DNA from: Squalus acanthias
Taxonomy: Eukaryota
Length of the DNA: 64,000 nucleotides
Reading direction: 5' to 3'
NCBI GenBank assembly: GCA_030390025.1
Contig: CM059431.1
Coordinates: 117,244,001-117,308,000 of the forward strand
The position numbers and the translations under genes are program-made. Shown piece after piece: positions 10,568-29,300 of the stretch; positions within the stretch are counted from its first letter, which is position 1; every line of letters begins with the position of its first letter. Below the pieces are notes generated by a model, which saw nothing but the letters and a program-made list of their open reading frames with translations, searched no databases and was not told the origin of the DNA.

Positions 10568-11682
10568 TAAGAAGTACATCTGCTTTTTTTAAATACAGCT
10601 CCTGCTGGCTATGATAAGGAAATCTTGGATTCAGCATGCTTTCTGCAGTGAGACCTCTATAATTTATTCTCCCAGGTTCTAGCACTGTTTTTCATAGAGA
10701 TTTTTTCCCCCAATTTTGCTGTGGAAACTTAAACAGATAATTAGTTCTTGCACTTGTTTTATGTTAAGTCTGTTGAAAGGCCTCAATTATCTTGAACTAC
10801 AGGGGGATATAATCCTTACCACGGGGCCTAACCTTATTATTTCTCGGGAGCACTCTGTTAAATTTAAAACATGGGGAAACTGATGATGCATTTTTAAAGA
10901 AAAATATGATAGAGCTGTAATGCAGAGAAAGTATAAACACTGTCCATATAAGTAAAAGAGAACTGACATATTTATGTCAATATCATGATATCCAATAAAT
11001 TGCTGGAAATATATGACTACATCTAGAAAGAGAAATTATTTCTGTGGAAATCCTTTTATTAAAATTCAAGTAGAGACCCTTTGCTCGTCTGTTGAAGGGC
11101 CTCCAGACAAAGAATTTAAACTATTGTTTTGTTCTTTTTAGGTGTTGATGAACCTACATCCAGCTTTCACTGCTTTCATTTTAGATTTTCCAGTAATTTA
11201 CACATTATTTCTTTTTAACCCATGATGACACATTATTACATTTATATTACATCATTAGATATGCTCCATAATTTTCCTCGAAGAGTATTCCAATAAATAG
11301 GATTAAAAGAAACTCCCTTTATCAAAATTAGAGTTGGGCTTAAGCATAAAATATGCAGATATGAAGAGGAGGACAAAAAGAAATAAGTTCAGCCAAAGAT
11401 TGAAATGTGAGGTTCTTAACATGGCTTTGTATTGTAAGGGATTCTGACCCTGCGTGTCTCGCAGCCTGTGAGATTCACGCGGCTCTGTGCAGCCTGTATG
11501 TCAGTGCGGGTCTAGGCCTTGTTGCCTGTTCTGGTCTCCAGCCAGTCTGGGAACACTAGACACACCTGTGAGTGGTTCGAATCACTCTCCCTTACGGTTC
11601 TAGACACTGGACTTAGATGCGAGAGCAGTAATGGAGATGAAACTCATGTAGACTTGGTTTGAATGGTACGAAATGGAAAATC

Positions 11683-11688
11683 TTTATT
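11683..11688 (-). terminator. LTR polyadenylation signal AATAAA (also at +7757 and +15514)
   Basis: tttatt on the + strand; conserved at the equivalent position in related LTRs (39094-39099 and 41682-41687). Confidence 0.7.
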
Positions 11689-11892
11689 GCATGATACTTA
11701 AGATTATGAAATACATGTCATAAGCACAGATTAATGACAGTACAATCTTACAAACAGTTATATAGTCGATCTTAGGGAAACGAGGAACGAACGGCACAAA
11801 GTAAATAGGGGCACACATTACAAATATCCTTAATCCTTAAACCTCCCCTATCAATATCTATCCTAAAACTAGATTCGTAGGATTTCGAGACT

Positions 11893-11904
11893 CATGCTCA
11901 CCAC
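11893..11904 (-). promoter_or_regulatory. Putative major splice donor in the LTR R region (TG|GTGAGCAT)
   Basis: TGGTGAGCAT is retained in all three LTR lineages (also 38879-38888 and 41835-41844) despite divergent surroundings. Confidence 0.55.
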
Positions 11905-12277
11905 TCGTGATAACTCGGAGAAATTCCGAATAGCTGATCGGATGTTTTTCACCGCAGCACCCACGTGTCGGTCAGGAGATCTCCTGGTCCCACTTGTTTA
12001 CTTGCTTTTACTGCTCCGGCTAGCAGGCTGGAACGTCTGCTGTGATGAAGACCTGTGTTGGTTGGTTTAACAGGTACTCTTCGAGCACAGTTGTCGATAT
12101 CGTCGATACGATATGGCTTTCACATTCCAGTTACTTTGGGCACAGTCCAGTTATCATCGATGCAATATGTTTCGTTATAAGTTCGAAGAAGTCTTCCCAG
12201 CGAGGAAAACGTGGATAATCGACCTACAGGCGCGGTCGGGATTTACTGACCGTGGCGATGGATATGGTCTTCCTCTC

Positions 12278-12312
12278 TTCTCATCTCATCTCATCTCATC
12301 TCATCTCATCTC
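12278..12312 (+). repeat. (TCTCA)n pentanucleotide run inside the LTR
   Basis: tctcatctcatctcatctcatctcatctcatctc, same length in all three LTRs. Confidence 0.85.
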
Positions 12313-12508
12313 GGGCCTTTGGTTCCGCTGCCAGTTACCAACATAGGTCTTCGTTACGCGACACGAGGTAGATCCGAACGGATCAGAAAGTTCAACAGTC
12401 TTTTTCAAAGAGTCAACAGGCAAGCAGGAGCCCGACTACGAGTACACAGGAGCAGCCACGAGGTTACGAAATAAGAGCACAGGATAAGAGAAAGCTGGAC
12501 GGTTTGGA

Positions 12509-12521
12509 GCCTGCAATTATA
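12509..12521 (-). promoter_or_regulatory. Putative LTR TATA box (TATAATTGCAGGC); 5' LTR copy at about 28023-28035
   Basis: gcctgcaattata here versus gccttcaattata at about 42177-42189 in the diverged solo LTR; GC box/E2F-like ttttcccgccc just upstream. Confidence 0.55.
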
Positions 12522-13123
12522 GTGCAAAATCTTCCGTTTTCCCGCCCAACTATAATGTCCATTCTTTTGTTTAGGGTTTGGCGCTCAAAATGTCTTGTAT
12601 GGGTGATCTCCGTTCTTAATGGGTTTCGGGGCTACTCGTAAATGTCTGAGTACCTGTTAATATTTCTCCCATTGTTAAATCGGTCGGTGTTCTCCCTGGA
12701 GGGGTTTGGGGCTTCCAAGTGTCCTGTATAACTACCTGCTAACGGCTCTCTCATCGTAGAGTCGTTGGGATTTTACATATTAATGTCTTTTGGATGGGCC
12801 CTTGATTACTCGGTACAATGGCTTTCCTTTGTACCTGGGAGACCGATTTCAGTATCTATGTGTATACTGCAAACCCATAATGTCTCGTGTATTATCTTCA
12901 CTGTGCTGAATCTTAATCGATCTTGCACAAATGTTTATTGGAACGCCATCTTGTCTGCCTGTTGAAAAGTCTAGAATGTTCTGTCACGAGGTGCGGCGGC
13001 CATTTTACAGGCTGCTTGTGTCCACTTTAAACCTGCCAGCATTCTACTGAAATAAAAGCTGTTTGAACGAAACTCTGTGTTTTCTCCTTATTAATAAAAT
13101 CGCGATATATTGCGAATTCTACA

Positions 13124-13135
13124 GTCCCTCCTGTT
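13124..13135 (-). promoter_or_regulatory. Polypurine tract-like sequence (AACAGGAGGGAC) abutting the 3' LTR
   Basis: Purine-rich run immediately 5' of TGTAGAATT on the minus strand. Confidence 0.6.
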
Positions 13136-13574
13136 GATGCGAATAACTCCGCTTATCGTATCAAAAATCATAGTGGTGAGCAATATTATCTTGATTTCTC
13201 TCCGAATCCAGTAAATTAATCCCATAATTTTAACTTAGCTAGGGTCTCTGTGTCGTCCTCATTTCCCAAGAAAATTACATTTTATATCACCGTAGGCATT
13301 ATTTGCCCTTAAACTTACACCACTTGTTTTCCTTCCCGGCGTAACCAGGCCGATGCCTCTCGTATCACCTGTATATTCATCTTTTATTCAGGGAAAGGAG
13401 AAACAGAACCCAAAACCAAACAATCATTTTTAACTGTAACACCATCACCAAAATAAATCAACACCAACTCTTAAAACATGTCGAGTTCCCAACGTATTTA
13501 CAATCTCTGAAAATCTTATATGAGTACAGGCTTCCGCGGCGCACGCGGCGAGCGGGAGTGACGCCATTTTCCGA

Positions 13575-15926
13575 TTACACGGTGCTCTCATCGTGCACGC
13601 GCACGTAACGTTCTCGCCACTCTCCCGTGTTTTCATGCTTGGTGAGGCGTTTGTCTCTTTTACAATGTACAACCAATAGGTACACTACAATGAAAACTTG
13701 GCATACGACTAAAATGTGGGAGGCTATTCTGATCCATGAAGGTACTTCAATATTGGTGAACAGATTCCACCACGGTGGAACTACTATATCCAGAATGTCT
13801 GTTCCTATTTCGACAGTTTTCTGCTCTAATGTGTAAAAATGTTTCTGTGACACCGCGACGGCTTTCAAAAGCTTGGTGAGGTGTTCAGGGAGAGGGGGAA
13901 TGAGGTATCCAAAATGCGCGACGAATCGCTGCAAGTCGGTGAAATTCTCTTTTACTGTGAGATGAACAGTGGATGGTTCAGGGATTGGGATAATTCGCTG
14001 TTGTGCTACTTGAACTTCCGCCCTGGGTTTAAAACAGAAACTGCTGTCACTCACCGGACACCGGCTACGGTTTCCATGCTGGTAGTGTTGCGCTGCAGTG
14101 GTAACACAATATGTTCCACCCCCGATGTATGCTACCTGCGGAGGCACATGATCTTGTGCCATTGCCTCCATGGTGCAATTCATGGACTTGGCGCCAGCCG
14201 TTCTGAACCCGCACTGTGGTGTTAAAAAGGCATTCAAGTGCTGGGGGCACAGTATTATGTGTGCTCCCCTGCCACGACAACCAGAGAGATCTGTACCTGT
14301 CATCGTTTGCTCCCAGCGGATGACGTAAGGTGGAACCGCTGCATAACGAATGTGGGCTCCCCCCTGAATGACACCGATGTTCTCTACCCGATATACCGGG
14401 GCGGGCTTTGCTGTGTCGCCCAAAACCGGCATACGTAAAACTATACCCATGATGGTATGGTTTGATCGTCCGCAGTCCACGGGGACTGGGTAAGCTTCTG
14501 AAGCTAGCCTGAGCTGGCATGGACTTAATGCGTTCTGAAAAGGGTGGAGCGCCCGCAGGTGTTTGTTACTTATCCAGGACGGAACCAAACCTTGTTTTAA
14601 ATCCTCCAAATTACTGCGGCCCTCGCCCAGTAACCACGCCCCGTAAAGCACGCACACCTCGTTCTGCGCAGCTTGATCGGATGCATTCCGATCTTCCCTA
14701 ATCAGGGCATTTACCGTCTTTGCATGTTTCTCCAACTCTGCTACAATTTCCTTTAAATGGAGAGTCATGGCTTGGTCCTCGTGTAGACCCGACCCTACCA
14801 CTTTATTCTCATCTGTTAGAATGTCCTTTAATTGTGTCTTTAAACCATTAATCTGGGTCTGCAGCTCCACACTGTCTAGAGCGTTGACCACAGATGTACC
14901 TGTGTTAAAAGCAGTGAACGCATCGTTCACCAAACCCCTTCTTTGCCTCCCTACTTGATCCAAAACTTCCTGTGGTGCGGTGTACAAACTTGTTTTATCA
15001 ATTTCCGCGAAATCGAATTCGTAAAATTGTCTGAACATCTTGGTCAACAGGACCTGGTACAACTGTTCCGTCTTTTTGGGGCACCACTCTGGTAACCGCA
15101 CCTCAGTGAGATTTAAAATCACCGAGGCCACCGCGTAATGTACCCCCTGAAATAGTATCTGGTCTGTGGGGACCAGTACCAAACCATTCCCGGGTCCCTT
15201 ACTAGTTTTAGGGCACCCTTCTTCCTCAGCTAGAACCACCGGAATCGTGGGCGGGGCTTTGCGTGGGCGCGTAATGAGCTCAGTGGCATTTACTGGGATC
15301 GGGGAGAATGGGGCTCCGCACCCCCTGGTGCTCGCATCCCACCTCATCCCCTGTCCGTTATCCTGCCATTGATTAATAAAAAATATGGAGATGCCTTTGG
15401 GGCAAACGTACTTTGACCCCCACATACATACATAAATTCCCTCATCCGGTTCCCACCATTTGTCCCAACAGACTTTCACTTGTCCGTCTGTCCCCGTAAT
15501 TGTCCGATGGGTATTATTACCCAGTCGTTCCCACTCGACCGAAGAGTTCCTCATAGTTTTGCTCAGCTTTCGCAGCCACCACCATCGGCTCAATGGGACC
15601 TTCCCACTACAAGTCAAACAAATCCGTTTGCCGACGGTGACGCTGATCCTGGGTGCGATGATCCTTACTTTGGGGCACAGTAAAGAAGTCTCTTTGTAGG
15701 CAAACCCCGATGTGCTGGAATACTCCGTTGAGTTCGTTCCCAGCCATCCTGGCCACCTTCCCTTGTGAAAATAGGTGCTGGTCTCCTCTGCCTCCCGTCT
15801 TCCGGTCCCATCCACCGCGATGGGGGCCGTGTCCCCGGAACATCCAAACACCACGACATCCTTGGTGCGGCCTCGATAGGCCAATCCACATCCGATTGCC
15901 ACGAGCAATACTAGAATTCGTTCCAT
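13575..15926 (-). CDS. env: Envelope glycoprotein, copy 1 (783 aa from the likely ATG; open frame extends to 16109): signal peptide, Ig-like domain, furin site, class I F-like fusogen, TM
   Basis: Signal-like MERILVLLVAIGCGLA in strong Kozak context (AAGATGG); LTC...W...DEGIYVC; RQRR|GLVNDAFTAFNTG; heptad repeat; Cys-rich region; TM IASHILVVCQVFIVVYLLVVHC; several N-x-S/T sequons. Confidence 0.88.
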   Translation of the reverse strand: MERILVLLVAIGCGLAYRGRTKDVVVFGCSGDTAPIAVDGTGRREAEETSTYFHKGRWPGWLGTNSTEYSSTSGFAYKETSLLCPKVRIIAPRISVTVGKRICLTCSGKVPLSRWWWLRKLSKTMRNSSVEWERLGNNTHRTITGTDGQVKVCWDKWWEPDEGIYVCMWGSKYVCPKGISIFFINQWQDNGQGMRWDASTRGCGAPFSPIPVNATELITRPRKAPPTIPVVLAEEEGCPKTSKGPGNGLVLVPTDQILFQGVHYAVASVILNLTEVRLPEWCPKKTEQLYQVLLTKMFRQFYEFDFAEIDKTSLYTAPQEVLDQVGRQRRGLVNDAFTAFNTGTSVVNALDSVELQTQINGLKTQLKDILTDENKVVGSGLHEDQAMTLHLKEIVAELEKHAKTVNALIREDRNASDQAAQNEVCVLYGAWLLGEGRSNLEDLKQGLVPSWISNKHLRALHPFQNALSPCQLRLASEAYPVPVDCGRSNHTIMGIVLRMPVLGDTAKPAPVYRVENIGVIQGGAHIRYAAVPPYVIRWEQTMTGTDLSGCRGRGAHIILCPQHLNAFLTPQCGFRTAGAKSMNCTMEAMAQDHVPPQVAYIGGGTYCVTTAAQHYQHGNRSRCPVSDSSFCFKPRAEVQVAQQRIIPIPEPSTVHLTVKENFTDLQRFVAHFGYLIPPLPEHLTKLLKAVAVSQKHFYTLEQKTVEIGTDILDIVVPPWWNLFTNIEVPSWIRIASHILVVCQVFIVVYLLVVHCKRDKRLTKHENTGEWRERYVRVHDESTV

Positions 15927-15938
15927 CTTTCCTTGGTT

Positions 15939-15960
15939 CCTGTGATCAGATAGAATGAGG
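15939..15960 (-). promoter_or_regulatory. Candidate env splice acceptor
   Basis: Minus strand CTCATTCTATCTGATCACAG|GAACCAAGGAAAG-ATG; the acceptor lies 13 nt before the env ATG. Confidence 0.5.
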
Positions 15961-16212
15961 TAGCCAGCCTCGCAAGAGTCTCTGGCTTTTGTGAAGGGTG
16001 AGCGGGTCCCCTGACCTCGCCTCACGTAAACTTCAACGTTCGCTGAATAAACTTTCACTAAACCTATCTTTAAAACTCCCATCATTTTATCGTTTTCTGT
16101 TAAAAACACTACAAACTTAACCTTATTAAAGCTATAAACTTAACCTTGAAATATTAACTTAAAACTTATTACTACTTACTATACAGTGCCGCCCGTTCTC
16201 AGGGCGGCCCCT

Positions 16213-17373
16213 TTAAATTCTGAGAAGGCTGCTGCGAGCTCTTCCCGACGGTGGGAGGGCACTGACCCTTCCCTCTGATCTGCCGCAGCCTGTTACTGCG
16301 CTGACCCTTCCCTCTGATCTGCCGCAGCCTGTTACTGCTGCGATGTGGCCGGTCTGTACCTGGGTTATCTTAACCTTAAATTTTCGCCTTGGGACAGTCT
16401 GGGGACATGACCACATCCTCCTGGGCTGGGGTTCTCTACTTGACCTACGGGGAGTTGCTGTGGGCGGGGGTTCCGTGACGGACGGACCGGGTTCCGAGAC
16501 CTCCATCGGGATGACCTGGGGTTCCATCACAGTCGCCGGCTCCGCCTCCGCTGACTCCGCCTCCCTAACCTCGGGGCTGGCAGTTCGTGGCTCCGCCCTG
16601 CTCGGCCCAGCAGGCGGCCCTTCACTCGTGATCTCTGCCTCCCCTGAGGACTGGACGTTCAAAGCGGGCGGCCACATCTCTGGGAGCCACACCGGTACTC
16701 TCTGTGCTCCCATAGCGGCTGGCCCTGCCTCCTCTAGCTCCTCCCTCCTGTCTTCGGGACCTGCAGCTCGTGTGTCCACCCTGTGTGGATCTCTACCTGC
16801 AGCCCCCGTCCCCTCCATATCGTAAAAGGGACCGTTCCTCCGAAACCACCCGTCGTCATCACTATCCTCATCTGCACTATCCTCATCTGACCCGGGTACC
16901 CTGAATTCTTCCTCATCTAACCCCCAATTCCAGAAAAACGCTGCATGATCGTCCGGGATGTCCCTTCCTCTGATGCAAGCTGCTATGCCTGCCTGTGTGC
17001 CTTGTGGTCCTACCTGGGGCTGTGCTTTCCCACTGGCGGGATTTACCCCTGTGATTTTCCCTTGCGCACCTGGCTTGTACAGTTTGCACTGGTTTGCATC
17101 CTCATACTCCCGGCTTTTGGCTACCCTGTAGGCTGCTTTTATCTCACTAAGCTGCGCTTCTAGCCTGAGCACGTCTAACTTTCCCATTGCTCGGGCGTTC
17201 TCCTCCCGCAGGGCCTGCTCTCTAAGCTGCCCTTCCAGCCCATCTATTTTCCCTATTAAGCGGGCGTTCTCCTCCCGCAAGGCCTGCTCTTTTAACCTGG
17301 CCTCCTCACCGCAGACCCCCTCCTGTGCGTGTCTTTTAAAAGGACACAGGTAGGCAGGCTGCGTGGGCTCTAG
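16213..17373 (-). CDS. ORF2, copy 1: 386 codons in frame with gag after a single TGA; coiled-coil N-part, acidic tract, Pro/Glu-rich C-part; function unknown
   Basis: Manual translation 3' of the gag TGA gives LEPTQPAYLCPFKRHAQEGVCGEEARLKEQA, continuing without a stop into the 355-aa ORF of the track (which starts at TTG). Confidence 0.75.
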   Translation of the reverse strand, partial: LEPTQPAYLCPFKRHAQEGVCGEEARLKEQALREENARLIGKIDGLEGQLREQALREENARAMGKLDVLRLEAQLSEIKAAYRVAKSREYEDANQCKLYKPGAQGKITGVNPASGKAQPQVGPQGTQAGIAACIRGRDIPDDHAAFFWNWGLDEEEFRVPGSDEDSADEDSDDDGWFRRNGPFYDMEGTGAAGRDPHRVDTRAAGPEDRREELEEAGPAAMGAQRVPVWLPEMWPPALNVQSSGEAEITSEGPPAGPSRAEPRTASPEVREAESAEAEPATVMEPQVIPMEVSEPGPSVTEPPPTATPRRSSREPQPRRMWSCPQTVPRRKFKVKITQVQTGHIAAVTGCGRSEGRVSAVTGCGRSEGRVSALPPSGRARSSLLRI

Positions 17374-19185
17374 TCATTGGGTACTATTAGACGGTCCTGC
17401 GGCACCTACGGGGCCGGTTGCGACCGCCACCTGTCCACGCGCATTCAAGACCAGCTTGCGCATGGCTCCTAACACTGCTTCGAGGTCGTCGGGAGGGGTG
17501 GGTGCCTTGGCTTCCTTAGCCGGGACAGGCGCCTGGGCTCGGACCGCGGGATTTTTATCCTTGGAATCCTTCCAAGGGTTCCTGCAATGCTTGCGCCAGT
17601 GCCCTGTCTTCCCACACCCGTAACAAGCATTACTTGCCTGTGGGGCGCGATTACCCTCTTGATGCCACTCTCTTTGATACGGGGCTGCGGGTCGTACCTC
17701 ATGTACTCTTCCCTTAAGGGGACGTGTTGCCATACCCCTTATATTGCGATAACCTAACGTGAGTCGATTCAAGATCGACTCTTCCGTAATGTTGGGGTCA
17801 TTGGGATCAAACCATGCTTTTGCCTGCTCTCTGACGGCTGGTAAACTGTTGGCTATTATGCACCTAAGCCAATGAGTTAAAGCTAAACCTTCCACATCTT
17901 CGCGCTCGGGCGCACCTAGACAGCTGCGCTCATATACTGGCCACAGCCTGTCGGCAAAAACCTTCGGGGGTTCTCCCTCCATCTGCACTGTCTGTCCCAC
18001 TCTAGCAAACGGACCTTCGTCGTTCGCCCCCAACACTTCCAGGACCTCATTCTTTAATTCCTCATAACTCTTGGTTCCCCTCTTGCTCTCGCCTGAGAGA
18101 CACTGAAGGACCGAGCTGTCTAATGAGAACAGCAGCATTTTTGCTGTCTCCCCATCATCGCAGCCGTTAATGGCTGCGGCTTGCTCAACTTCTCTGAAAT
18201 GTACGGAAGGGTCGTCTGCCTCGGTCAGCTTCCGTACGTGATTTATCATAGCTCTCAGCTGATGTGAACTGTGAGGCAACACCAGCTGTCCGAGGAGATC
18301 CCCCGGTTCTTCCCCACCGTTTCTGCTTGGGCCCCTTTTAATACCCGTTACTGGATATAACGATCCCTTTCCTACTTCTTTTTCAATGGGCTCTTTTGTT
18401 TCTTCCATTGCTTCCTCCCTAACCCAGGTTTCTGAATAGCTGGGTGGCACGGAGGGCGCAGTGACTACTACTCCTTCTGCTTTACTTGGTGGGGATTTTC
18501 TAAATCTCTCATTTACTAGCGGCTGGTGTGCCGACGGATTGATAAGGCACACCATGCCGTTCGCATTGTTCATGGCCTTTTTGAGGTGCTCTATCTCCCT
18601 TTGGCAGGCGCTATGATCGGCTCCCTGAAACTTATCCTCAAGGGCCAACTTATATGCCGCCCTAACCCCCGTCAAGCTCTCTTCTTGAGTTCTTATCTGG
18701 GCAGCTTGGCGGTTACATCTTTCCTTTAACCTGCTCTCATTCAATTTTGCCTCAGTGACCTGGCACTCGAGATAATCTATCCTTGTTTTAAGGTGACTGG
18801 AGACTTCCTGGCTTTCTTGGTGTAACTCATTTAAATTCTTAATGAGCACCTCCCCTCCAGAAACCTTCTCCTCCATTTCTCCCTCTAAATGACTGATTCG
18901 AGCTACTAGCGCTGTAATGGTCTGGTTGGAAATCTGAACCTGCCTTTTGTAACACATAAGCCAGACTGCTTTCTCAAGTGTCTTTTTATGTTCTTTACTA
19001 TCTGTCCACCTTTCAGCTGCCTCTAGCGGGCTTTTATCCGCTAACAATTCACTTATCCATTTCTTAGTTAGATTAACCTTTCCAAACACATAATCCGCTA
19101 TCTTTTCCTGCATAACATTTCGTACAGTCATTCCAAAATCTAACACACTACCCTCTCGCTGCCAGTGTCCTGCCGCGGTCGCCAT
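17374..19185 (-). CDS. gag: Gag polyprotein, copy 1 (603 aa)
   Basis: Coiled-coil N-part, PPSY late-domain motif, capsid-like region with MHR-like QMEGEPPKVFADRL, CCHC knuckle CYGCGKTGHWRKHC. Confidence 0.92.
   Translation of the reverse strand: MATAAGHWQREGSVLDFGMTVRNVMQEKIADYVFGKVNLTKKWISELLADKSPLEAAERWTDSKEHKKTLEKAVWLMCYKRQVQISNQTITALVARISHLEGEMEEKVSGGEVLIKNLNELHQESQEVSSHLKTRIDYLECQVTEAKLNESRLKERCNRQAAQIRTQEESLTGVRAAYKLALEDKFQGADHSACQREIEHLKKAMNNANGMVCLINPSAHQPLVNERFRKSPPSKAEGVVVTAPSVPPSYSETWVREEAMEETKEPIEKEVGKGSLYPVTGIKRGPSRNGGEEPGDLLGQLVLPHSSHQLRAMINHVRKLTEADDPSVHFREVEQAAAINGCDDGETAKMLLFSLDSSVLQCLSGESKRGTKSYEELKNEVLEVLGANDEGPFARVGQTVQMEGEPPKVFADRLWPVYERSCLGAPEREDVEGLALTHWLRCIIANSLPAVREQAKAWFDPNDPNITEESILNRLTLGYRNIRGMATRPLKGRVHEVRPAAPYQREWHQEGNRAPQASNACYGCGKTGHWRKHCRNPWKDSKDKNPAVRAQAPVPAKEAKAPTPPDDLEAVLGAMRKLVLNARGQVAVATGPVGAAGPSNSTQ
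19167..19184 (-). promoter_or_regulatory. Primer binding site, tRNA-Arg(TCG)-type
   Basis: TGGCGACCGCGGCAGGAC, 5 nt from the LTR end; complementary to the vertebrate tRNA-Arg(TCG) 3' end GTCCTGCCGCGGTCG-CCA as I recall it. Confidence 0.85.
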
Positions 19186-19189
19186 TTTC

Positions 19190-20880
19190 TGTAAGGGATT
19201 CTGACCCTGCGTGTCTCGCAGCCTGTGAGATTCACGCGGCTCTGTGCAGCCTGTATGTCAGTGCGGGTCTAGGCCTTGTTGCCTGTTCTGGTCTCCAGCC
19301 AGTCTGGGAACACTAGACACACCTGTGAGTGGTTCGAATCACTCTCCCTTACGGTTCTAGACACTGGACTTAGATGCGAGAGCAGTAATGGAGATGAAAC
19401 TCATGTAGACTTGGTTTGAATGGTACGAAATGGAAAATCTTTATTGCATGATACTTAAGATTATGAAATACATGTCATAAGCACAGATTAATGACAGTAC
19501 AATCTTACAAACAGTTATATAGTCGATCTTAGGGAAACGAGGAACGAACGGCACAAAGTAAATAGGGGCACACATTACAAATATCCTTAATCCTTAAACC
19601 TCCCCTATCAATATCTATCCTAAAACTAGATTCGTAGGATTTCGAGACTCATGCTCACCACTCGTGATAACTCGGAGAAATTCCGAATAGCTGATCGGAT
19701 GTTTTTCACCGCAGCACCCACGTGTCGGTCAGGAGATCTCCTGGTCCCACTTGTTTACTTGCTTTTACTGCTCCGGCTAGCAGGCTGGAACGTCTGCTGT
19801 GATGAAGACCTGTGTTGGTTGGTTTAACAGGTACTCTTCGAGCACAGTTGTCGATATCGTCGATACGATATGGCTTTCACATTCCAGTTACTTTGGGCAC
19901 AGTCCAGTTATCATCGATGCAATATGTTTCGTTATAAGTTCGAAGAAGTCTTCCCAGCGAGGAAAACGTGGATAATCGACCTACAGGCGCGGTCGGGATT
20001 TACTGACCGTGGCGATGGATATGGTCTTCCTCTCTTCTCATCTCATCTCATCTCATCTCATCTCATCTCGGGCCTTTGGTTCCGCTGCCAGTTACCAACA
20101 TAGGTCTTCGTTACGCGACACGAGGTAGATCCGAACGGATCAGAAAGTTCAACAGTCTTTTTCAAAGAGTCAACAGGCAAGCAGGAGCCCGACTACGAGT
20201 ACACAGGAGCAGCCACGAGGTTACGAAATAAGAGCACAGGATAAGAGAAAGCTGGACGGTTTGGAGCCTGCAATTATAGTGCAAAATCTTCCGTTTTCCC
20301 GCCCAACTATAATGTCCATTCTTTTGTTTAGGGTTTGGCGCTCAAAATGTCTTGTATGGGTGATCTCCGTTCTTAATGGGTTTCGGGGCTACTCGTAAAT
20401 GTCTGAGTACCTGTTAATATTTCTCCCATTGTTAAATCGGTCGGTGTTCTCCCTGGAGGGGTTTGGGGCTTCCAAGTGTCCTGTATAACTACCTGCTAAC
20501 GGCTCTCTCATCGTAGAGTCGTTGGGATTTTACATATTAATGTCTTTTGGATGGGCCCTTGATTACTCGGTACAATGGCTTTCCTTTGTACCTGGGAGAC
20601 CGATTTCAGTATCTATGTGTATACTGCAAACCCATAATGTCTCGTGTATTATCTTCACTGTGCTGAATCTTAATCGATCTTGCACAAATGTTTATTGGAA
20701 CGCCATCTTGTCTGCCTGTTGAAAAGTCTAGAATGTTCTGTCACGAGGTGCGGCGGCCATTTTACAGGCTGCTTGTGTCCACTTTAAACCTGCCAGCATT
20801 CTACTGAAATAAAAGCTGTTTGAACGAAACTCTGTGTTTTCTCCTTATTAATAAAATCGCGATATATTGCGAATTCTACA
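19190..20880 (-). repeat. LTR 2 (shared middle LTR), 1691 bp
   Basis: No difference from LTR 1 seen by eye; PBS on one side, PPT on the other. Confidence 0.95.
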
Positions 20881-20892
20881 GTCCCTCCTGTT
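20881..20892 (-). promoter_or_regulatory. Polypurine tract-like sequence, copy 2
   Basis: Same as 13124-13135. Confidence 0.6.
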
Positions 20893-21331
20893 GATGCGAA
20901 TAACTCCGCTTATCGTATCAAAAATCATAGTGGTGAGCAATATTATCTTGATTTCTCTCCGAATCCAGTAAATTAATCCCATAATTTTAACTTAGCTAGG
21001 GTCTCTGTGTCGTCCTCATTTCCCAAGAAAATTACATTTTATATCACCGTAGGCATTATTTGCCCTTAAACTTACACCACTTGTTTTCCTTCCCGGCGTA
21101 ACCAGGCCGATGCCTCTCGTATCACCTGTATATTCATCTTTTATTCAGGGAAAGGAGAAACAGAACCCAAAACCAAACAATCATTTTTAACTGTAACACC
21201 ATCACCAAAATAAATCAACACCAACTCTTAAAACATGTCGAGTTCCCAACGTATTTACAATCTCTGAAAATCTTATATGAGTACAGGCTTCCGCGGCGCA
21301 CGCGGCGAGCGGGAGTGACGCCATTTTCCGA

Positions 21332-23683
21332 TTACACGGTGCTCTCATCGTGCACGCGCACGTAACGTTCTCGCCACTCTCCCGTGTTTTCATGCTTGGT
21401 GAGGCGTTTGTCTCTTTTACAATGTACAACCAATAGGTACACTACAATGAAAACTTGGCATACGACTAAAATGTGGGAGGCTATTCTGATCCATGAAGGT
21501 ACTTCAATATTGGTGAACAGATTCCACCACGGTGGAACTACTATATCCAGAATGTCTGTTCCTATTTCGACAGTTTTCTGCTCTAATGTGTAAAAATGTT
21601 TCTGTGACACCGCGACGGCTTTCAAAAGCTTGGTGAGGTGTTCAGGGAGAGGGGGAATGAGGTATCCAAAATGCGCGACGAATCGCTGCAAGTCGGTGAA
21701 ATTCTCTTTTACTGTGAGATGAACAGTGGATGGTTCAGGGATTGGGATAATTCGCTGTTGTGCTACTTGAACTTCCGCCCTGGGTTTAAAACAGAAACTG
21801 CTGTCACTCACCGGACACCGGCTACGGTTTCCATGCTGGTAGTGTTGCGCTGCAGTGGTAACACAATATGTTCCACCCCCGATGTATGCTACCTGCGGAG
21901 GCACATGATCTTGTGCCATTGCCTCCATGGTGCAATTCATGGACTTGGCGCCAGCCGTTCTGAACCCGCACTGTGGTGTTAAAAAGGCATTCAAGTGCTG
22001 GGGGCACAGTATTATGTGTGCTCCCCTGCCACGACAACCAGAGAGATCTGTACCTGTCATCGTTTGCTCCCAGCGGATGACGTAAGGTGGAACCGCTGCA
22101 TAACGAATGTGGGCTCCCCCCTGAATGACACCGATGTTCTCTACCCGATATACCGGGGCGGGCTTTGCTGTGTCGCCCAAAACCGGCATACGTAAAACTA
22201 TACCCATGATGGTATGGTTTGATCGTCCGCAGTCCACGGGGACTGGGTAAGCTTCTGAAGCTAGCCTGAGCTGGCATGGACTTAATGCGTTCTGAAAAGG
22301 GTGGAGCGCCCGCAGGTGTTTGTTACTTATCCAGGACGGAACCAAACCTTGTTTTAAATCCTCCAAATTACTGCGGCCCTCGCCCAGTAACCACGCCCCG
22401 TAAAGCACGCACACCTCGTTCTGCGCAGCTTGATCGGATGCATTCCGATCTTCCCTAATCAGGGCATTTACCGTCTTTGCATGTTTCTCCAACTCTGCTA
22501 CAATTTCCTTTAAATGGAGAGTCATGGCTTGGTCCTCGTGTAGACCCGACCCTACCACTTTATTCTCATCTGTTAGAATGTCCTTTAATTGTGTCTTTAA
22601 ACCATTAATCTGGGTCTGCAGCTCCACACTGTCTAGAGCGTTGACCACAGATGTACCTGTGTTAAAAGCAGTGAACGCATCGTTCACCAAACCCCTTCTT
22701 TGCCTCCCTACTTGATCCAAAACTTCCTGTGGTGCGGTGTACAAACTTGTTTTATCAATTTCCGCGAAATCGAATTCGTAAAATTGTCTGAACATCTTGG
22801 TCAACAGGACCTGGTACAACTGTTCCGTCTTTTTGGGGCACCACTCTGGTAACCGCACCTCAGTGAGATTTAAAATCACCGAGGCCACCGCGTAATGTAC
22901 CCCCTGAAATAGTATCTGGTCTGTGGGGACCAGTACCAAACCATTCCCGGGTCCCTTACTAGTTTTAGGGCACCCTTCTTCCTCAGCTAGAACCACCGGA
23001 ATCGTGGGCGGGGCTTTGCGTGGGCGCGTAATGAGCTCAGTGGCATTTACTGGGATCGGGGAGAATGGGGCTCCGCACCCCCTGGTGCTCGCATCCCACC
23101 TCATCCCCTGTCCGTTATCCTGCCATTGATTAATAAAAAATATGGAGATGCCTTTGGGGCAAACGTACTTTGACCCCCACATACATACATAAATTCCCTC
23201 ATCCGGTTCCCACCATTTGTCCCAACAGACTTTCACTTGTCCGTCTGTCCCCGTAATTGTCCGATGGGTATTATTACCCAGTCGTTCCCACTCGACCGAA
23301 GAGTTCCTCATAGTTTTGCTCAGCTTTCGCAGCCACCACCATCGGCTCAATGGGACCTTCCCACTACAAGTCAAACAAATCCGTTTGCCGACGGTGACGC
23401 TGATCCTGGGTGCGATGATCCTTACTTTGGGGCACAGTAAAGAAGTCTCTTTGTAGGCAAACCCCGATGTGCTGGAATACTCCGTTGAGTTCGTTCCCAG
23501 CCATCCTGGCCACCTTCCCTTGTGAAAATAGGTGCTGGTCTCCTCTGCCTCCCGTCTTCCGGTCCCATCCACCGCGATGGGGGCCGTGTCCCCGGAACAT
23601 CCAAACACCACGACATCCTTGGTGCGGCCTCGATAGGCCAATCCACATCCGATTGCCACGAGCAATACTAGAATTCGTTCCAT
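21332..23683 (-). CDS. env: Envelope glycoprotein, copy 2
   Basis: Translation identical to copy 1. Confidence 0.88.
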   Translation of the reverse strand: MERILVLLVAIGCGLAYRGRTKDVVVFGCSGDTAPIAVDGTGRREAEETSTYFHKGRWPGWLGTNSTEYSSTSGFAYKETSLLCPKVRIIAPRISVTVGKRICLTCSGKVPLSRWWWLRKLSKTMRNSSVEWERLGNNTHRTITGTDGQVKVCWDKWWEPDEGIYVCMWGSKYVCPKGISIFFINQWQDNGQGMRWDASTRGCGAPFSPIPVNATELITRPRKAPPTIPVVLAEEEGCPKTSKGPGNGLVLVPTDQILFQGVHYAVASVILNLTEVRLPEWCPKKTEQLYQVLLTKMFRQFYEFDFAEIDKTSLYTAPQEVLDQVGRQRRGLVNDAFTAFNTGTSVVNALDSVELQTQINGLKTQLKDILTDENKVVGSGLHEDQAMTLHLKEIVAELEKHAKTVNALIREDRNASDQAAQNEVCVLYGAWLLGEGRSNLEDLKQGLVPSWISNKHLRALHPFQNALSPCQLRLASEAYPVPVDCGRSNHTIMGIVLRMPVLGDTAKPAPVYRVENIGVIQGGAHIRYAAVPPYVIRWEQTMTGTDLSGCRGRGAHIILCPQHLNAFLTPQCGFRTAGAKSMNCTMEAMAQDHVPPQVAYIGGGTYCVTTAAQHYQHGNRSRCPVSDSSFCFKPRAEVQVAQQRIIPIPEPSTVHLTVKENFTDLQRFVAHFGYLIPPLPEHLTKLLKAVAVSQKHFYTLEQKTVEIGTDILDIVVPPWWNLFTNIEVPSWIRIASHILVVCQVFIVVYLLVVHCKRDKRLTKHENTGEWRERYVRVHDESTV

Positions 23684-23969
23684 CTTTCCTTGGTTCCTGT
23701 GATCAGATAGAATGAGGTAGCCAGCCTCGCAAGAGTCTCTGGCTTTTGTGAAGGGTGAGCGGGTCCCCTGACCTCGCCTCACGTAAACTTCAACGTTCGC
23801 TGAATAAACTTTCACTAAACCTATCTTTAAAACTCCCATCATTTTATCGTTTTCTGTTAAAAACACTACAAACTTAACCTTATTAAAGCTATAAACTTAA
23901 CCTTGAAATATTAACTTAAAACTTATTACTACTTACTATACAGTGCCGCCCGTTCTCAGGGCGGCCCCT

Positions 23970-25130
23970 TTAAATTCTGAGAAGGCTGCTGCGAGCTCTT
24001 CCCGACGGTGGGAGGGCACTGACCCTTCCCTCTGATCTGCCGCAGCCTGTTACTGCGCTGACCCTTCCCTCTGATCTGCCGCAGCCTGTTACTGCTGCGA
24101 TGTGGCCGGTCTGTACCTGGGTTATCTTAACCTTAAATTTTCGCCTTGGGACAGTCTGGGGACATGACCACATCCTCCTGGGCTGGGGTTCTCTACTTGA
24201 CCTACGGGGAGTTGCTGTGGGCGGGGGTTCCGTGACGGACGGACCGGGTTCCGAGACCTCCATCGGGATGACCTGGGGTTCCATCACAGTCGCCGGCTCC
24301 GCCTCCGCTGACTCCGCCTCCCTAACCTCGGGGCTGGCAGTTCGTGGCTCCGCCCTGCTCGGCCCAGCAGGCGGCCCTTCACTCGTGATCTCTGCCTCCC
24401 CTGAGGACTGGACGTTCAAAGCGGGCGGCCACATCTCTGGGAGCCACACCGGTACTCTCTGTGCTCCCATAGCGGCTGGCCCTGCCTCCTCTAGCTCCTC
24501 CCTCCTGTCTTCGGGACCTGCAGCTCGTGTGTCCACCCTGTGTGGATCTCTACCTGCAGCCCCCGTCCCCTCCATATCGTAAAAGGGACCGTTCCTCCGA
24601 AACCACCCGTCGTCATCACTATCCTCATCTGCACTATCCTCATCTGACCCGGGTACCCTGAATTCTTCCTCATCTAACCCCCAATTCCAGAAAAACGCTG
24701 CATGATCGTCCGGGATGTCCCTTCCTCTGATGCAAGCTGCTATGCCTGCCTGTGTGCCTTGTGGTCCTACCTGGGGCTGTGCTTTCCCACTGGCGGGATT
24801 TACCCCTGTGATTTTCCCTTGCGCACCTGGCTTGTACAGTTTGCACTGGTTTGCATCCTCATACTCCCGGCTTTTGGCTACCCTGTAGGCTGCTTTTATC
24901 TCACTAAGCTGCGCTTCTAGCCTGAGCACGTCTAACTTTCCCATTGCTCGGGCGTTCTCCTCCCGCAGGGCCTGCTCTCTAAGCTGCCCTTCCAGCCCAT
25001 CTATTTTCCCTATTAAGCGGGCGTTCTCCTCCCGCAAGGCCTGCTCTTTTAACCTGGCCTCCTCACCGCAGACCCCCTCCTGTGCGTGTCTTTTAAAAGG
25101 ACACAGGTAGGCAGGCTGCGTGGGCTCTAG
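23970..25130 (-). CDS. ORF2 (gag-readthrough extension), copy 2
   Basis: Identical to copy 1; TGA-CTAG junction at 25127-25133. Confidence 0.75.
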   Translation of the reverse strand, partial: LEPTQPAYLCPFKRHAQEGVCGEEARLKEQALREENARLIGKIDGLEGQLREQALREENARAMGKLDVLRLEAQLSEIKAAYRVAKSREYEDANQCKLYKPGAQGKITGVNPASGKAQPQVGPQGTQAGIAACIRGRDIPDDHAAFFWNWGLDEEEFRVPGSDEDSADEDSDDDGWFRRNGPFYDMEGTGAAGRDPHRVDTRAAGPEDRREELEEAGPAAMGAQRVPVWLPEMWPPALNVQSSGEAEITSEGPPAGPSRAEPRTASPEVREAESAEAEPATVMEPQVIPMEVSEPGPSVTEPPPTATPRRSSREPQPRRMWSCPQTVPRRKFKVKITQVQTGHIAAVTGCGRSEGRVSAVTGCGRSEGRVSALPPSGRARSSLLRI

Positions 25131-26942
25131 TCATTGGGTACTATTAGACGGTCCTGCGGCACCTACGGGGCCGGTTGCGACCGCCACCTGTCCACGCGCA
25201 TTCAAGACCAGCTTGCGCATGGCTCCTAACACTGCTTCGAGGTCGTCGGGAGGGGTGGGTGCCTTGGCTTCCTTAGCCGGGACAGGCGCCTGGGCTCGGA
25301 CCGCGGGATTTTTATCCTTGGAATCCTTCCAAGGGTTCCTGCAATGCTTGCGCCAGTGCCCTGTCTTCCCACACCCGTAACAAGCATTACTTGCCTGTGG
25401 GGCGCGATTACCCTCTTGATGCCACTCTCTTTGATACGGGGCTGCGGGTCGTACCTCATGTACTCTTCCCTTAAGGGGACGTGTTGCCATACCCCTTATA
25501 TTGCGATAACCTAACGTGAGTCGATTCAAGATCGACTCTTCCGTAATGTTGGGGTCATTGGGATCAAACCATGCTTTTGCCTGCTCTCTGACGGCTGGTA
25601 AACTGTTGGCTATTATGCACCTAAGCCAATGAGTTAAAGCTAAACCTTCCACATCTTCGCGCTCGGGCGCACCTAGACAGCTGCGCTCATATACTGGCCA
25701 CAGCCTGTCGGCAAAAACCTTCGGGGGTTCTCCCTCCATCTGCACTGTCTGTCCCACTCTAGCAAACGGACCTTCGTCGTTCGCCCCCAACACTTCCAGG
25801 ACCTCATTCTTTAATTCCTCATAACTCTTGGTTCCCCTCTTGCTCTCGCCTGAGAGACACTGAAGGACCGAGCTGTCTAATGAGAACAGCAGCATTTTTG
25901 CTGTCTCCCCATCATCGCAGCCGTTAATGGCTGCGGCTTGCTCAACTTCTCTGAAATGTACGGAAGGGTCGTCTGCCTCGGTCAGCTTCCGTACGTGATT
26001 TATCATAGCTCTCAGCTGATGTGAACTGTGAGGCAACACCAGCTGTCCGAGGAGATCCCCCGGTTCTTCCCCACCGTTTCTGCTTGGGCCCCTTTTAATA
26101 CCCGTTACTGGATATAACGATCCCTTTCCTACTTCTTTTTCAATGGGCTCTTTTGTTTCTTCCATTGCTTCCTCCCTAACCCAGGTTTCTGAATAGCTGG
26201 GTGGCACGGAGGGCGCAGTGACTACTACTCCTTCTGCTTTACTTGGTGGGGATTTTCTAAATCTCTCATTTACTAGCGGCTGGTGTGCCGACGGATTGAT
26301 AAGGCACACCATGCCGTTCGCATTGTTCATGGCCTTTTTGAGGTGCTCTATCTCCCTTTGGCAGGCGCTATGATCGGCTCCCTGAAACTTATCCTCAAGG
26401 GCCAACTTATATGCCGCCCTAACCCCCGTCAAGCTCTCTTCTTGAGTTCTTATCTGGGCAGCTTGGCGGTTACATCTTTCCTTTAACCTGCTCTCATTCA
26501 ATTTTGCCTCAGTGACCTGGCACTCGAGATAATCTATCCTTGTTTTAAGGTGACTGGAGACTTCCTGGCTTTCTTGGTGTAACTCATTTAAATTCTTAAT
26601 GAGCACCTCCCCTCCAGAAACCTTCTCCTCCATTTCTCCCTCTAAATGACTGATTCGAGCTACTAGCGCTGTAATGGTCTGGTTGGAAATCTGAACCTGC
26701 CTTTTGTAACACATAAGCCAGACTGCTTTCTCAAGTGTCTTTTTATGTTCTTTACTATCTGTCCACCTTTCAGCTGCCTCTAGCGGGCTTTTATCCGCTA
26801 ACAATTCACTTATCCATTTCTTAGTTAGATTAACCTTTCCAAACACATAATCCGCTATCTTTTCCTGCATAACATTTCGTACAGTCATTCCAAAATCTAA
26901 CACACTACCCTCTCGCTGCCAGTGTCCTGCCGCGGTCGCCAT
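25131..26942 (-). CDS. gag: Gag polyprotein, copy 2
   Basis: Translation identical to copy 1. Confidence 0.92.
   Translation of the reverse strand: MATAAGHWQREGSVLDFGMTVRNVMQEKIADYVFGKVNLTKKWISELLADKSPLEAAERWTDSKEHKKTLEKAVWLMCYKRQVQISNQTITALVARISHLEGEMEEKVSGGEVLIKNLNELHQESQEVSSHLKTRIDYLECQVTEAKLNESRLKERCNRQAAQIRTQEESLTGVRAAYKLALEDKFQGADHSACQREIEHLKKAMNNANGMVCLINPSAHQPLVNERFRKSPPSKAEGVVVTAPSVPPSYSETWVREEAMEETKEPIEKEVGKGSLYPVTGIKRGPSRNGGEEPGDLLGQLVLPHSSHQLRAMINHVRKLTEADDPSVHFREVEQAAAINGCDDGETAKMLLFSLDSSVLQCLSGESKRGTKSYEELKNEVLEVLGANDEGPFARVGQTVQMEGEPPKVFADRLWPVYERSCLGAPEREDVEGLALTHWLRCIIANSLPAVREQAKAWFDPNDPNITEESILNRLTLGYRNIRGMATRPLKGRVHEVRPAAPYQREWHQEGNRAPQASNACYGCGKTGHWRKHCRNPWKDSKDKNPAVRAQAPVPAKEAKAPTPPDDLEAVLGAMRKLVLNARGQVAVATGPVGAAGPSNSTQ
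26924..26941 (-). promoter_or_regulatory. Primer binding site, copy 2
   Basis: gtcctgccgcggtcgcca on the + strand. Confidence 0.85.
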
Positions 26943-26946
26943 TTTC

Positions 26947-28637
26947 TGTAAGGGATTCTGACCCTGCGTGTCTCGCAGCCTGTGAGATTCACGCGGCTCT
27001 GTGCAGCCTGTATGTCAGTGCGGGTCTAGGCCTTGTTGCCTGTTCTGGTCTCCAGCCAGTCTGGGAACACTAGACACACCTGTGAGTGGTTCGAATCACT
27101 CTCCCTTACGGTTCTAGACACTGGACTTAGATGCGAGAGCAGTAATGGAGATGAAACTCATGTAGACTTGGTTTGAATGGTACGAAATGGAAAATCTTTA
27201 TTGCATGATACTTAAGATTATGAAATACATGTCATAAGCACAGATTAATGACAGTACAATCTTACAAACAGTTATATAGTCGATCTTAGGGAAACGAGGA
27301 ACGAACGGCACAAAGTAAATAGGGGCACACATTACAAATATCCTTAATCCTTAAACCTCCCCTATCAATATCTATCCTAAAACTAGATTCGTAGGATTTC
27401 GAGACTCATGCTCACCACTCGTGATAACTCGGAGAAATTCCGAATAGCTGATCGGATGTTTTTCACCGCAGCACCCACGTGTCGGTCAGGAGATCTCCTG
27501 GTCCCACTTGTTTACTTGCTTTTACTGCTCCGGCTAGCAGGCTGGAACGTCTGCTGTGATGAAGACCTGTGTTGGTTGGTTTAACAGGTACTCTTCGAGC
27601 ACAGTTGTCGATATCGTCGATACGATATGGCTTTCACATTCCAGTTACTTTGGGCACAGTCCAGTTATCATCGATGCAATATGTTTCGTTATAAGTTCGA
27701 AGAAGTCTTCCCAGCGAGGAAAACGTGGATAATCGACCTACAGGCGCGGTCGGGATTTACTGACCGTGGCGATGGATATGGTCTTCCTCTCTTCTCATCT
27801 CATCTCATCTCATCTCATCTCATCTCGGGCCTTTGGTTCCGCTGCCAGTTACCAACATAGGTCTTCGTTACGCGACACGAGGTAGATCCGAACGGATCAG
27901 AAAGTTCAACAGTCTTTTTCAAAGAGTCAACAGGCAAGCAGGAGCCCGACTACGAGTACACAGGAGCAGCCACGAGGTTACGAAATAAGAGCACAGGATA
28001 AGAGAAAGCTGGACGGTTTGGAGCCTGCAATTATAGTGCAAAATCTTCCGTTTTCCCGCCCAACTATAATGTCCATTCTTTTGTTTAGGGTTTGGCGCTC
28101 AAAATGTCTTGTATGGGTGATCTCCGTTCTTAATGGGTTTCGGGGCTACTCGTAAATGTCTGAGTACCTGTTAATATTTCTCCCATTGTTAAATCGGTCG
28201 GTGTTCTCCCTGGAGGGGTTTGGGGCTTCCAAGTGTCCTGTATAACTACCTGCTAACGGCTCTCTCATCGTAGAGTCGTTGGGATTTTACATATTAATGT
28301 CTTTTGGATGGGCCCTTGATTACTCGGTACAATGGCTTTCCTTTGTACCTGGGAGACCGATTTCAGTATCTATGTGTATACTGCAAACCCATAATGTCTC
28401 GTGTATTATCTTCACTGTGCTGAATCTTAATCGATCTTGCACAAATGTTTATTGGAACGCCATCTTGTCTGCCTGTTGAAAAGTCTAGAATGTTCTGTCA
28501 CAAGGTGCGGCGGCCATTTTACAGGCTGCTTGTGTCCACTTTAAACCTGCCAGCATTCTACTGAAATAAAAGCTGCTTGAACGAAACTCTGTGTTTTCTC
28601 CTTATTAATAAAATCGCGATATATTGCGAATTCTACA
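26947..28637 (-). repeat. LTR 3 (5' LTR of the array), 1691 bp
   Basis: Same termini; differs from LTR 1 and LTR 2 at 28502 (A vs G) and 28576 (C vs T). Confidence 0.95.
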
Positions 28638-28924: not shown

Positions 28925-29300
28925 TTACAGTTTTTGGCCTAGAAATGGTCTGTGCAGCACCTGGTTTTCAGGTGCTACTTGTACTACACACATCCAGCTA
29001 GAAGTGGGCCACCAGCAATATTGGATAAGGACAAAATATAGGTGTCTTTTACCCACACCTGAAGCAGGTGTTAGACCCTTTGCATATGCGAATAAAGGGC
29101 CTAATACCTGTCTGAGGTCCCCTCTCCAAGATTGGTTTGCCCTGAAGCAGACAAAAGCAGCGTTGGCTGCACTCGGGGAAACCAATCCTAGGGATCGCCT
29201 GCTAGGCCCAATCGAGAAGATAAGTAACTTGCCTGAATGTAGAGCCAGGAGGAACAGGAGTGATCCTCTCAAACCTAGGTTAAATGAACAGATTGCCCAC
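28925..29300 (+). repeat. Unclassified interspersed repeat; related copy at about 38040-38280
   Basis: Shared blocks ttgcatatgc...cctctccaagattggtttgccctgaag versus cctctgcaatattggtttgccttgagg. Confidence 0.5.

Follow-up and report, generated by a model that had tools for sequence, protein, structure and literature searches.

The 64,000-nucleotide (nt) stretch of contig CM059431.1 analysed here, called the window, comes from the shark Squalus acanthias and carries two copies of the envelope gene (env) of an endogenous retroelement. In the encoded envelope protein (Env), residues ~146-245 probably form a divergent immunoglobulin-superfamily-like domain, to judge from their sequence. The best joint explanation of the observations is that an immunoglobulin-like (Ig-like) sandwich sits on an N-terminal add-on in front of a class I fusion core, that the gene is the env of a lokiretrovirus-like element, and that the add-on has a receptor-binding role. 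A probability of roughly 0.6 is given to this joint reading.

The first env frame is 844 amino acids (aa) long and occupies window positions 13575-16109 on the minus strand, according to the list of open reading frames (ORFs) and its translation. Its first codon is GTG, taken under translation table 11. The likely start is Met62, from which the relatives also align, followed by a 16-residue hydrophobic stretch resembling a signal peptide, MERILVLLVAIGCGLA. With Met62 as the start, the numbering of the mature protein is shifted. The probable start and signal peptide take up residues 62-77 (15879..15926, minus strand). The second env copy (frame 21332-23866; Met start to stop 21332..23683, minus strand) encodes a protein identical to the first.

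In copy 1, the Ig-like domain lies at 15375..15674 on the minus strand, where residues 146-245 read PKVRIIAPRISVTVGKRICLTC...GIYVCMW...FFI in translation. The identical domain of copy 2 lies at 23132..23431 on the same strand. An earlier note on this DNA, which had proposed an Ig-like domain from the sequence alone, gave both positions and its quoted residues correctly.

Evidence for an Ig-like fold

The signature of Ig domains consists of a Cys in the B strand, a Trp about 10-15 residues further on, and D-x-G-x-Y-x-C in the F strand, with a Cys spacing of about 55-75 residues. Each of these elements is found within residues 146-245. The B strand, ICLTC, contains Cys164 and Cys167. The sequence RWWW starts at residue 175, and its Trp run (176-178) begins 9 residues past Cys167. 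The F strand, DEGIYVC, ends at Cys228, giving a Cys167-Cys228 spacing of 61. The cysteines of the stretch are 164, 167, 214, 228, and 236, and a conserved N-glycan sequon is located at Asn198.

The signature pointed out in the earlier note is therefore present, and it is also conserved. Both B-strand Cys, the Trp run, and DxGxYxC are kept in relatives at 45-74% identity, which come from skate, shark, and sawshark and from two older lineages of the same genome. The F-strand Cys occurs in seven of the eight sequences covering that position; the exception, L029, is a decayed copy.

How often such a motif arises by chance can be estimated with the pattern C-x(8-18)-W-x(25-65)-D-x-[GAS]-x-Y-x-C and a Cys spacing of 50-80. 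When the residues of the 783-aa env are shuffled 20,000 times, it turns up in 18 of the shuffles. Only the two env copies have it among all the window's six-frame ORFs that are at least 100 aa long (15,086 aa). The motif is not a product of chance.

The Pfam family Ig_3 is matched by the N-terminal sequences of 12 of 15 relatives, at the same place and in the same register (best E 5.9e-4). It is the sole Pfam family matched by more than one of these sequences. Since the scores fall short of the gathering cut-off (11-17 bits, among the matches shown, against 30), the domain is called Ig-like here and regarded as a probable divergent member, not a filed member, of the family. The V/I-set assignment of the earlier note thus stands as to likeness, with recurring Ig_3 matches, and not as to formal membership.

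Alignments can also be compared with each other. With hhalign, an alignment of the env Ig region was set against one of 20 Ig_3 exons that also come from this genome. The two match over 71 columns in the canonical register, with a score of 28.2 and an E of 4.9e-5, and their V-x-V-x-E-G-x-x-V-x-L-x-C, W, and D-x-G-x-Y-x-C elements are superposed. Among the controls, reversal of the alignment gives a score of 9.4, and the scores of seven other env segments range from 7.8 to 12.9. In 200 column shuffles the mean is 11.1 and the maximum 19.7, so that none of the 200 reaches 28.2. The similarity of the env Ig region to host Ig domains is specific.

Structure prediction gives a further line of comparison. 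One AlphaFold run covered residues 62-300 with a 9-row alignment, and a second covered residues 78-272 with a cleaner 15-row alignment. In the better model, from run 1, the Ig stretch is all-beta, with strands at the expected A, B, C, D, E, F, and G places. When this model is searched with Foldseek, antibody V domains fill all 50 best rows (best E 7.8e-3). The target-normalised TM-score (TMt) is mostly 0.45-0.63, and the well-fitting rows deviate by ~2.2-3.5 Å (root-mean-square deviation, rmsd) over ~87-94 columns. A VIA search, which is independent of Foldseek, likewise returns Ig domains as the 50 best rows (Z 6.2-7.5), among them V, I-set, CD79b, VNAR, and T-cell receptor types. Those language-model neighbours that carry a family label all belong to the Ig clan (0.91 for residues 143-250, 0.88 for residues 80-262).

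From sequence and models together, it is very probable that residues 146-245 adopt an Ig-like fold. They would form a divergent V/I-set-like beta-sandwich, with Cys167 and Cys228 as the canonical core pair, joined by a predicted disulfide, and Trp177/178 as the C-strand tryptophan.

The N-terminal module and the fusion core

The Ig-like domain does not stand alone at the N-terminus. It is preceded by a subdomain (residues 78-145; 15675..15878, minus strand) that has invariant columns and contains Cys90 and Cys145. Its motif GRWPGWLG-NST-YSS-GF-Y, which includes an invariant glycan sequon, is more conserved than any other part of the N-terminal region. The subdomain gives no family match and no hhalign Ig signal, and its pLDDT (AlphaFold's per-residue confidence score) is low in both models. 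On the other side, the end of the module (Cys264) and a Pro-rich linker occupy residues 246-298 (15216..15374, minus strand). Seven Pro fall within residues 262-298, in agreement with the linker described in the earlier note between the Ig-like stretch and the fusion module. The subdomain, the Ig-like domain, and the linker would together make up an add-on of ~220 residues.

The fusion core starts at Cys299. Its F2-like first part (residues 299-391; 14937..15215, minus strand) extends from the CP..GP.nGL motif at Cys299 to a furin-type site, RQRR, at residues 388-391. The cleavage motif is kept in homologues. Directly after RQRR comes a hydrophobic fusion peptide, GLVNDAFTAFNTG..., which opens the F1-like subunit (residues 392-844; 13578..14936, minus strand), recognised from sequence, hydropathy, and a profile match to the Protein Data Bank (PDB) chain 8rm1_D. 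After the fusion peptide come two heptad regions, separated by a long Cys-containing beta region, and then PPWW, the membrane anchor, and a short tail. Hydropathy places the anchor at residues ~793-815 (13665-13733, minus strand).

A cleavage site, a fusion peptide, two heptad regions, and an anchor on a subunit of ~400 residues are the layout of F-type fusion proteins, and all are found here. Sequence matches to such proteins are weak. A profile of the 37-member family has the foamy-virus Env 8rm1_D as its best PDB match (E 0.015). Pfam Baculo_F is matched collinearly by one of the 37 members (P0042, E 0.0011), under the cut-off. Given the architecture, these weak matches, and the lokiretrovirus Env described in the accessible text of PMC7947760, the F-type nature of the core is plausible. 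The label “F-type fusogen” in the earlier note thus holds for the architecture, while the sequence matches stay below threshold.

Lokiretroviruses, which are vertebrate long terminal repeat (LTR) retroviruses, offer the closest parallel in layout. According to the accessible text of PMC7947760, their Env has a signal peptide, an R-x-K/R-R cleavage site, a fusion peptide, coiled coils, and an anchor, and is related to the F protein of paramyxoviruses and pneumoviruses. All five features are common to the shark Env, and frog proteins are among its distant homologues. In contrast, the published lokiretrovirus Env model is without an N-terminal Ig-like domain, and the word “immunoglobulin” occurs 0 times in that text. 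The relation to F also differs in extent: Pfam Fusion_gly (PF00523) is matched collinearly by one of the 37 members of the shark family (L036, E 0.036), under the cut-off. In the main text of PMC7947760, as far as accessible, “shark” and “cartilaginous” occur 0 times; its supplements may list hosts.

Another retroviral Env with an F-like core is that of foamy viruses (8rm1). According to the accessible text of PMC11468914, this core is shared with the F protein of paramyxoviruses and pneumoviruses. The foamy-virus Env also has its own receptor-binding domain, which that text places after the heptad-repeat C (HRC) helix and before the furin site, and which it does not describe as Ig-like. The shark module, by comparison, lies at the extreme N-terminus, ahead of the first core strands. 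The gag of the shark element, with its CCHC knuckle, is a further difference from foamy virus.

The shark Env shares its furin site, its fusion peptide, and its pair of heptad regions around a long Cys-containing beta region with the F proteins of paramyxoviruses, pneumoviruses, and baculoviruses. These F proteins have a short F2 and are not known to have an N-terminal add-on domain.

Evidence that the N-terminal module is an add-on comes from its relatives. An exhaustive phmmer search of representative proteins found 50 relatives, ~8 of which span the module; named protein homologues come from a skate, several sharks, and two frogs. Distant full-length homologues are 17-31% identical and align only from query position ~221-237 onward, at about Cys299, where they have the CP..GP.nGL motif in common. 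In one relative, P0039, the signal peptide leads straight into the CP motif. P0039 is 38% identical over 595 aa to P0036, which has ~130 extra N-terminal residues that are Ig-like (hhalign against host Ig exons E 5.3e-5; Pfam V-set E 0.045). Because the distant homologues align only from the CP motif and P0039 is without the module, the alignments indicate that the module is an add-on in front of the fusion core. This agrees with the N-terminal position claimed in the earlier note, which had also suggested a survey of related env genes; the module is present in some of them and absent in P0039.

The type of N-terminal module varies among lineages and may be Ig-like, otherwise Cys-rich, or missing. 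P0015, L036, P0021, and P0050 have a Cys...Trp...Cys pattern by eye, with hhalign probabilities against host Ig exons of 3.2%, 5.4%, 0.3%, and 1.3%, respectively. The UniRef label of P0015, a distant relative, is “Ig-like domain-containing protein”. P0014 and P0025 have a different, Cys-rich N-terminus (probability at most 0.8%). When the N-terminal alignment of the env family is compared by hhalign with that of the distant group (P0015, L036, P0021, P0050, and P0036), the probability is 1%, over the B-C strand stretch only. As no relation is detectable between these alignments, one ancient acquisition and several separate ones are both compatible with the data. A profile search of 5.8 billion proteins for more homologues gained one sequence, P0069.

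The same genome contains a second, deeply diverged env family of the P0015 type (~28% core identity), most copies of which are decayed. One of its copies, L036, has an open frame of 784 aa and an N-terminus that looks Ig-like by pattern. In public databases, the gene models P0005, P0006, P0013, and P0042 join env pieces to host genes. Such chimeric models are named Niban 1-like or ZFP2-like, and others have cadherin or F-box domains. They are probably annotation chimeras caused by the abundant element.

A proposed receptor-binding role and rival explanations

In the proposed mechanism, the add-on would precede a class I fusion core starting at Cys299 and would stay attached to the fusion subunit after furin cleavage. 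The module would act as the receptor-binding or attachment part, and receptor engagement would release the fusion core. An F-like fusogen would thereby gain a function that is placed on a separate attachment protein in paramyxoviruses or on an inserted domain in foamy viruses. Binding of the module to a cell-surface ligand, which would in this way trigger the core, is rated slightly better than even, on the strength of the module's position and of analogy.

Selection on the module was studied by comparing the window lineage with two older lineages of the same genome. Between lineages, amino-acid identity is 52-56% in subdomain 78-145, with a nonsynonymous divergence (dN) of 0.35-0.43. It is 57-65% in the Ig part, residues 146-245 (dN 0.24-0.28), and 43-53% in the linker, residues 246-298 (dN 0.39-0.56), which is the fastest-evolving part. 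For F1 (residue 392 onward), one pair, the window copy and L032, gives 83% identity and a dN of 0.115. The module evolves faster than the fusion subunit, as is usual for surface subunits. Synonymous divergence (dS) between lineages is saturated, and most dN/dS values are not computable. Where dS is computable, the dN/dS of the Ig part is 0.07-0.08, which indicates that the module evolved as a working part of the protein.

An alternative to the Ig fold is that residues 146-245 are a viral domain rich in beta structure, Trp, and Cys but differently folded, whose Ig signature and weak Ig matches are due to convergence or chance. Several results count against the Ig fold and speak for such a domain. 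All Ig profile matches are below the Pfam cut-off, and the hhalign probability against host Ig exons is just 68%. The best PDB match of the N-terminal profile, CRTAM IgV, is not significant (E 0.45). Neither AlphaFold run gives a confident fold: mean pLDDT is 45.0 in run 1, with 10 residues above 70, and 42.7 in run 2, with 0 above 70. In model 2, several strands are missing, which leaves the sandwich incomplete, and Foldseek finds weak matches for it (E at least 0.14, rmsd mostly poor). VIA scores below 8 may, according to the tool's own note, reflect a common arrangement only. The module is also atypical of the Ig family in its 8 Trp per 100 residues and its extra Cys at 164, 214, and 236.

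Another fold is nevertheless unlikely. The hhalign score is far outside the 200 column shuffles and specific to the Ig segment, no Pfam family other than Ig_3 recurs among the relatives, the two independent aligners are unanimous in their 50 best rows, and shuffled sequences seldom contain the motif. In the AlphaFold and Foldseek comparison suggested in the earlier note, model 1 resembles Ig domains only and model 2 resembles them weakly; with both models at low confidence and the Ig profile matches below the Pfam cut-off, the comparison decides neither for nor against the note's reading. A second alternative concerns the fusion protein itself, since F-type and foamy-virus fusion proteins have an Ig-fold domain II of their own, with first strands that come from the ectodomain N-terminus (accessible text of PMC11468914). 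That the Ig-like signal is this domain, nested in the F-type core, is very improbable. The signature is a contiguous, complete unit of ~100 residues that ends 55 residues before Cys299, and Cys299 is where alignment with the distant homologues, and with P0039, which is without the module, first begins. Domain II sits C-terminal of the fusion peptide and is distinct from residues 146-245; core residues 521-720, where it would lie, show no Ig signal (hhalign 8.5-12.9). The F-type assignment of the core has points against it as well, because the foamy-virus match at E 0.015 comes from one profile, while PDB searches with a second profile, built on the distant env group only, and with the single env sequence returned no viral match.

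The domain may also be Ig-like and yet serve mainly as a prefusion cap or clamp, as a glycan shield, or as an immune-modulating or decoy surface. This is improbable, although less so than another fold, and capping or shielding is the main rival to receptor binding. The Ig domain is under purifying, not visibly diversifying, selection, which is unusual for a receptor-binding surface in an arms race and, like the conserved sequon at Asn198, would suit a cap or shield. The neighbouring subdomain 78-145, the most conserved part, may be the real ligand-binding part, and some relatives manage without any module. On the other side, retroviral receptor-binding domains usually sit at the membrane-distal N-terminus of the surface subunit, where the module is found, and a module type that varies among lineages is typical of receptor-switching parts. 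Nothing points to a decoy or immune function, and the immune-decoy module proposed in the earlier note found no supporting result.

The origin of the Ig-like domain is a separate question. In a tentative scenario, rated clearly below even, a lokiretrovirus-like lineage would long ago have acquired a cellular adhesion-type domain of the immunoglobulin superfamily (IgSF) and joined it to the N-terminus of an F-like fusogen. Modules would since have been swapped or lost repeatedly, and the Ig-bearing env would now be kept open in a pol-less element with hundreds of near-identical copies. If such a capture took place, it would have made the fusogen self-sufficient for receptor recognition. It would also imply a recent env-dependent spread of a pol-less gag-env element, aided by the pol of relatives. 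The earlier note had likewise assumed a captured domain, but a host donor is absent from the 50 phmmer matches, apart from chimeric gene models with env pieces. Cellular IgSF domains (Ig_3, I-set, V-set) have in common with env the Cys-Trp-DxGxYxC pattern, the Cys spacing of 61, and profile and structural likeness. They differ in that env is below the family cut-offs, has the extra Cys and many Trp, and has no close cellular relative among those found.

A comparable arrangement is known from gammaretroviruses. The surface subunit (SU) of murine leukaemia virus has an N-terminal receptor-binding module with an Ig-like beta-sandwich core, followed by a Pro-rich region. The shark Env resembles it in having an N-terminal module and a Pro-rich region, but the murine leukaemia virus Env has a gamma-type transmembrane subunit. 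None of the searches made detected a sequence relation to murine leukaemia virus SU.

Receptor-binding modules at the N-terminus of retroviral Envs, F-like Envs in retroviruses, and IgSF domains used by viruses are each of a known kind; their combination appears to be new. Literature searches turned up no F-like retroviral Env described as having an Ig-like domain at its N-terminus, and no paper containing both “lokiretrovirus” and “immunoglobulin”. Such a domain is not mentioned in the accessible text of PMC7947760, PMC13524379, PMC13709493, PMC11468914, or PMC12440569.

Paramyxoviruses bind their receptors via a separate attachment protein, on which their F depends. How the F-like Envs of ancient retroviruses find a receptor is not described in the literature searched. 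A modular Ig-like N-terminal domain, if real, would be a concrete, testable answer and a handle for receptor discovery. The natural relatives with an Ig-like module, another module, or none could be compared with no need for engineering. With this family, the range of F-like retroviral envelopes also comes to include cartilaginous fishes.

The surrounding retroelement and its abundance

The two env copies belong to two 7757-nt units that are 100% identical. They are arranged LTR-int-LTR-int-LTR (int, internal region) at window positions 11433-28637, with three copies of a 1691-nt LTR that has TG...CA ends. On the minus strand, the 3' LTR of unit 1 is at 11433..13123, the shared middle LTR at 19190..20880, and the 5' LTR of unit 2, 99.9% identical to the others, at 26947..28637. 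A TGG... stretch resembling a primer-binding site in sequence lies 5 nt behind the LTR (26924..26941, minus strand; also 19167-19184).

A gag-like ORF with a CCHC knuckle is found at 17374..19185 (minus strand; copy 2 at 25131-26942), with 40-49% identity to the gag of L055, a relative. Since the ATG listed for it overlaps the primer-binding-like site, translation may really begin at a later Met. Immediately after the gag stop, in the same frame, comes ORF2, with 386 aa (16213..17373, minus strand; copy 2 at 23970-25130). It begins with a coiled coil resembling the gag N-terminus, continues with low-complexity sequence, and occupies the place of pro-pol in relatives. No similarity to reverse transcriptase (RT) or integrase was detected anywhere in the window. 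Within ORF2, a 41-nt direct duplication (window 16259-16338) has arms that are 98% identical. Alignments of other copies break at this duplication, whose copy number therefore seems variable.

In older relatives from this genome, an integrase frame lies immediately upstream of env. In L055, the order is CCHC gag, RVP (weak), RVT_1, RT_RNaseH_2/RT_RNaseH, RNase_H, Integrase_H2C2, rve, an SH3-like domain, and env, and the RNase_H match of 30.9 bits is above its cut-off. The RT_RNaseH_2 match can be interpreted as the RNase-H-like “tether”. L055 thus has the layout of a lokiretrovirus, LTR-gag-pol-env with a tether and a second RNase H, while the window copies are without RT and integrase. The arrangement of RT, RNase-H-like domain, and RNase H is that of lokiretroviruses. 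Since the relatives carry RT, two RNase H domains, and integrase, the family looks lokiretrovirus-like. Its domain order suggests that the env studied here belongs to a lokiretrovirus-like endogenous retrovirus of cartilaginous fish, present in the window as a pol-less derivative.

The env family is very young and very abundant, and its env is mostly intact. In the 3.7-Gb host genome, a query with the N-terminal 209 aa of env gave 5932 first-look candidates, among which 150 scored places reach 100% identity after rounding. A manual count puts 108 of these 150 within open frames of at least 840 aa. The pol-less structure is found upstream of env in all 20 young copies sampled. An env-bearing, pol-less element at such a copy number is relevant to the amplification of endogenous retroviruses.

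Pairs or triplets of env ~7.7 kb apart occur on at least six other contigs (for example C3311, C9, C11, C2, C352, and another part of C7). It thus seems usual for the family to form tandem arrays. A mere assembly error was considered for the tandem repeat in the window and rejected because the spacing recurs at several other loci, although at this particular place an artefact may be involved.

Near-identical copies are also found in public sequencing data. Twenty runs from eight studies, with four coded organism labels, contain 60-82% of the sampled 31-mers of env. Such copies thus occur beyond the assembled individual and, apparently, beyond a single species label. In the contigs of seven runs guessed to be RNA, none of the runs being recorded as such, no leader-to-env spliced joint was found, though the contigs cover the whole element.

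Two further features lie outside the tandem units. A GC-rich array of a 30-nt tandem repeat, with 32 register copies reported, adjoins the 5' LTR at window positions 29221-30511. Further away, on the opposite strand, a 409-nt stretch at 38858-39256 is 77% identical to a part of the LTR (unit coordinates 11522-11925) and is probably, by this similarity, a fragment of a related older LTR.

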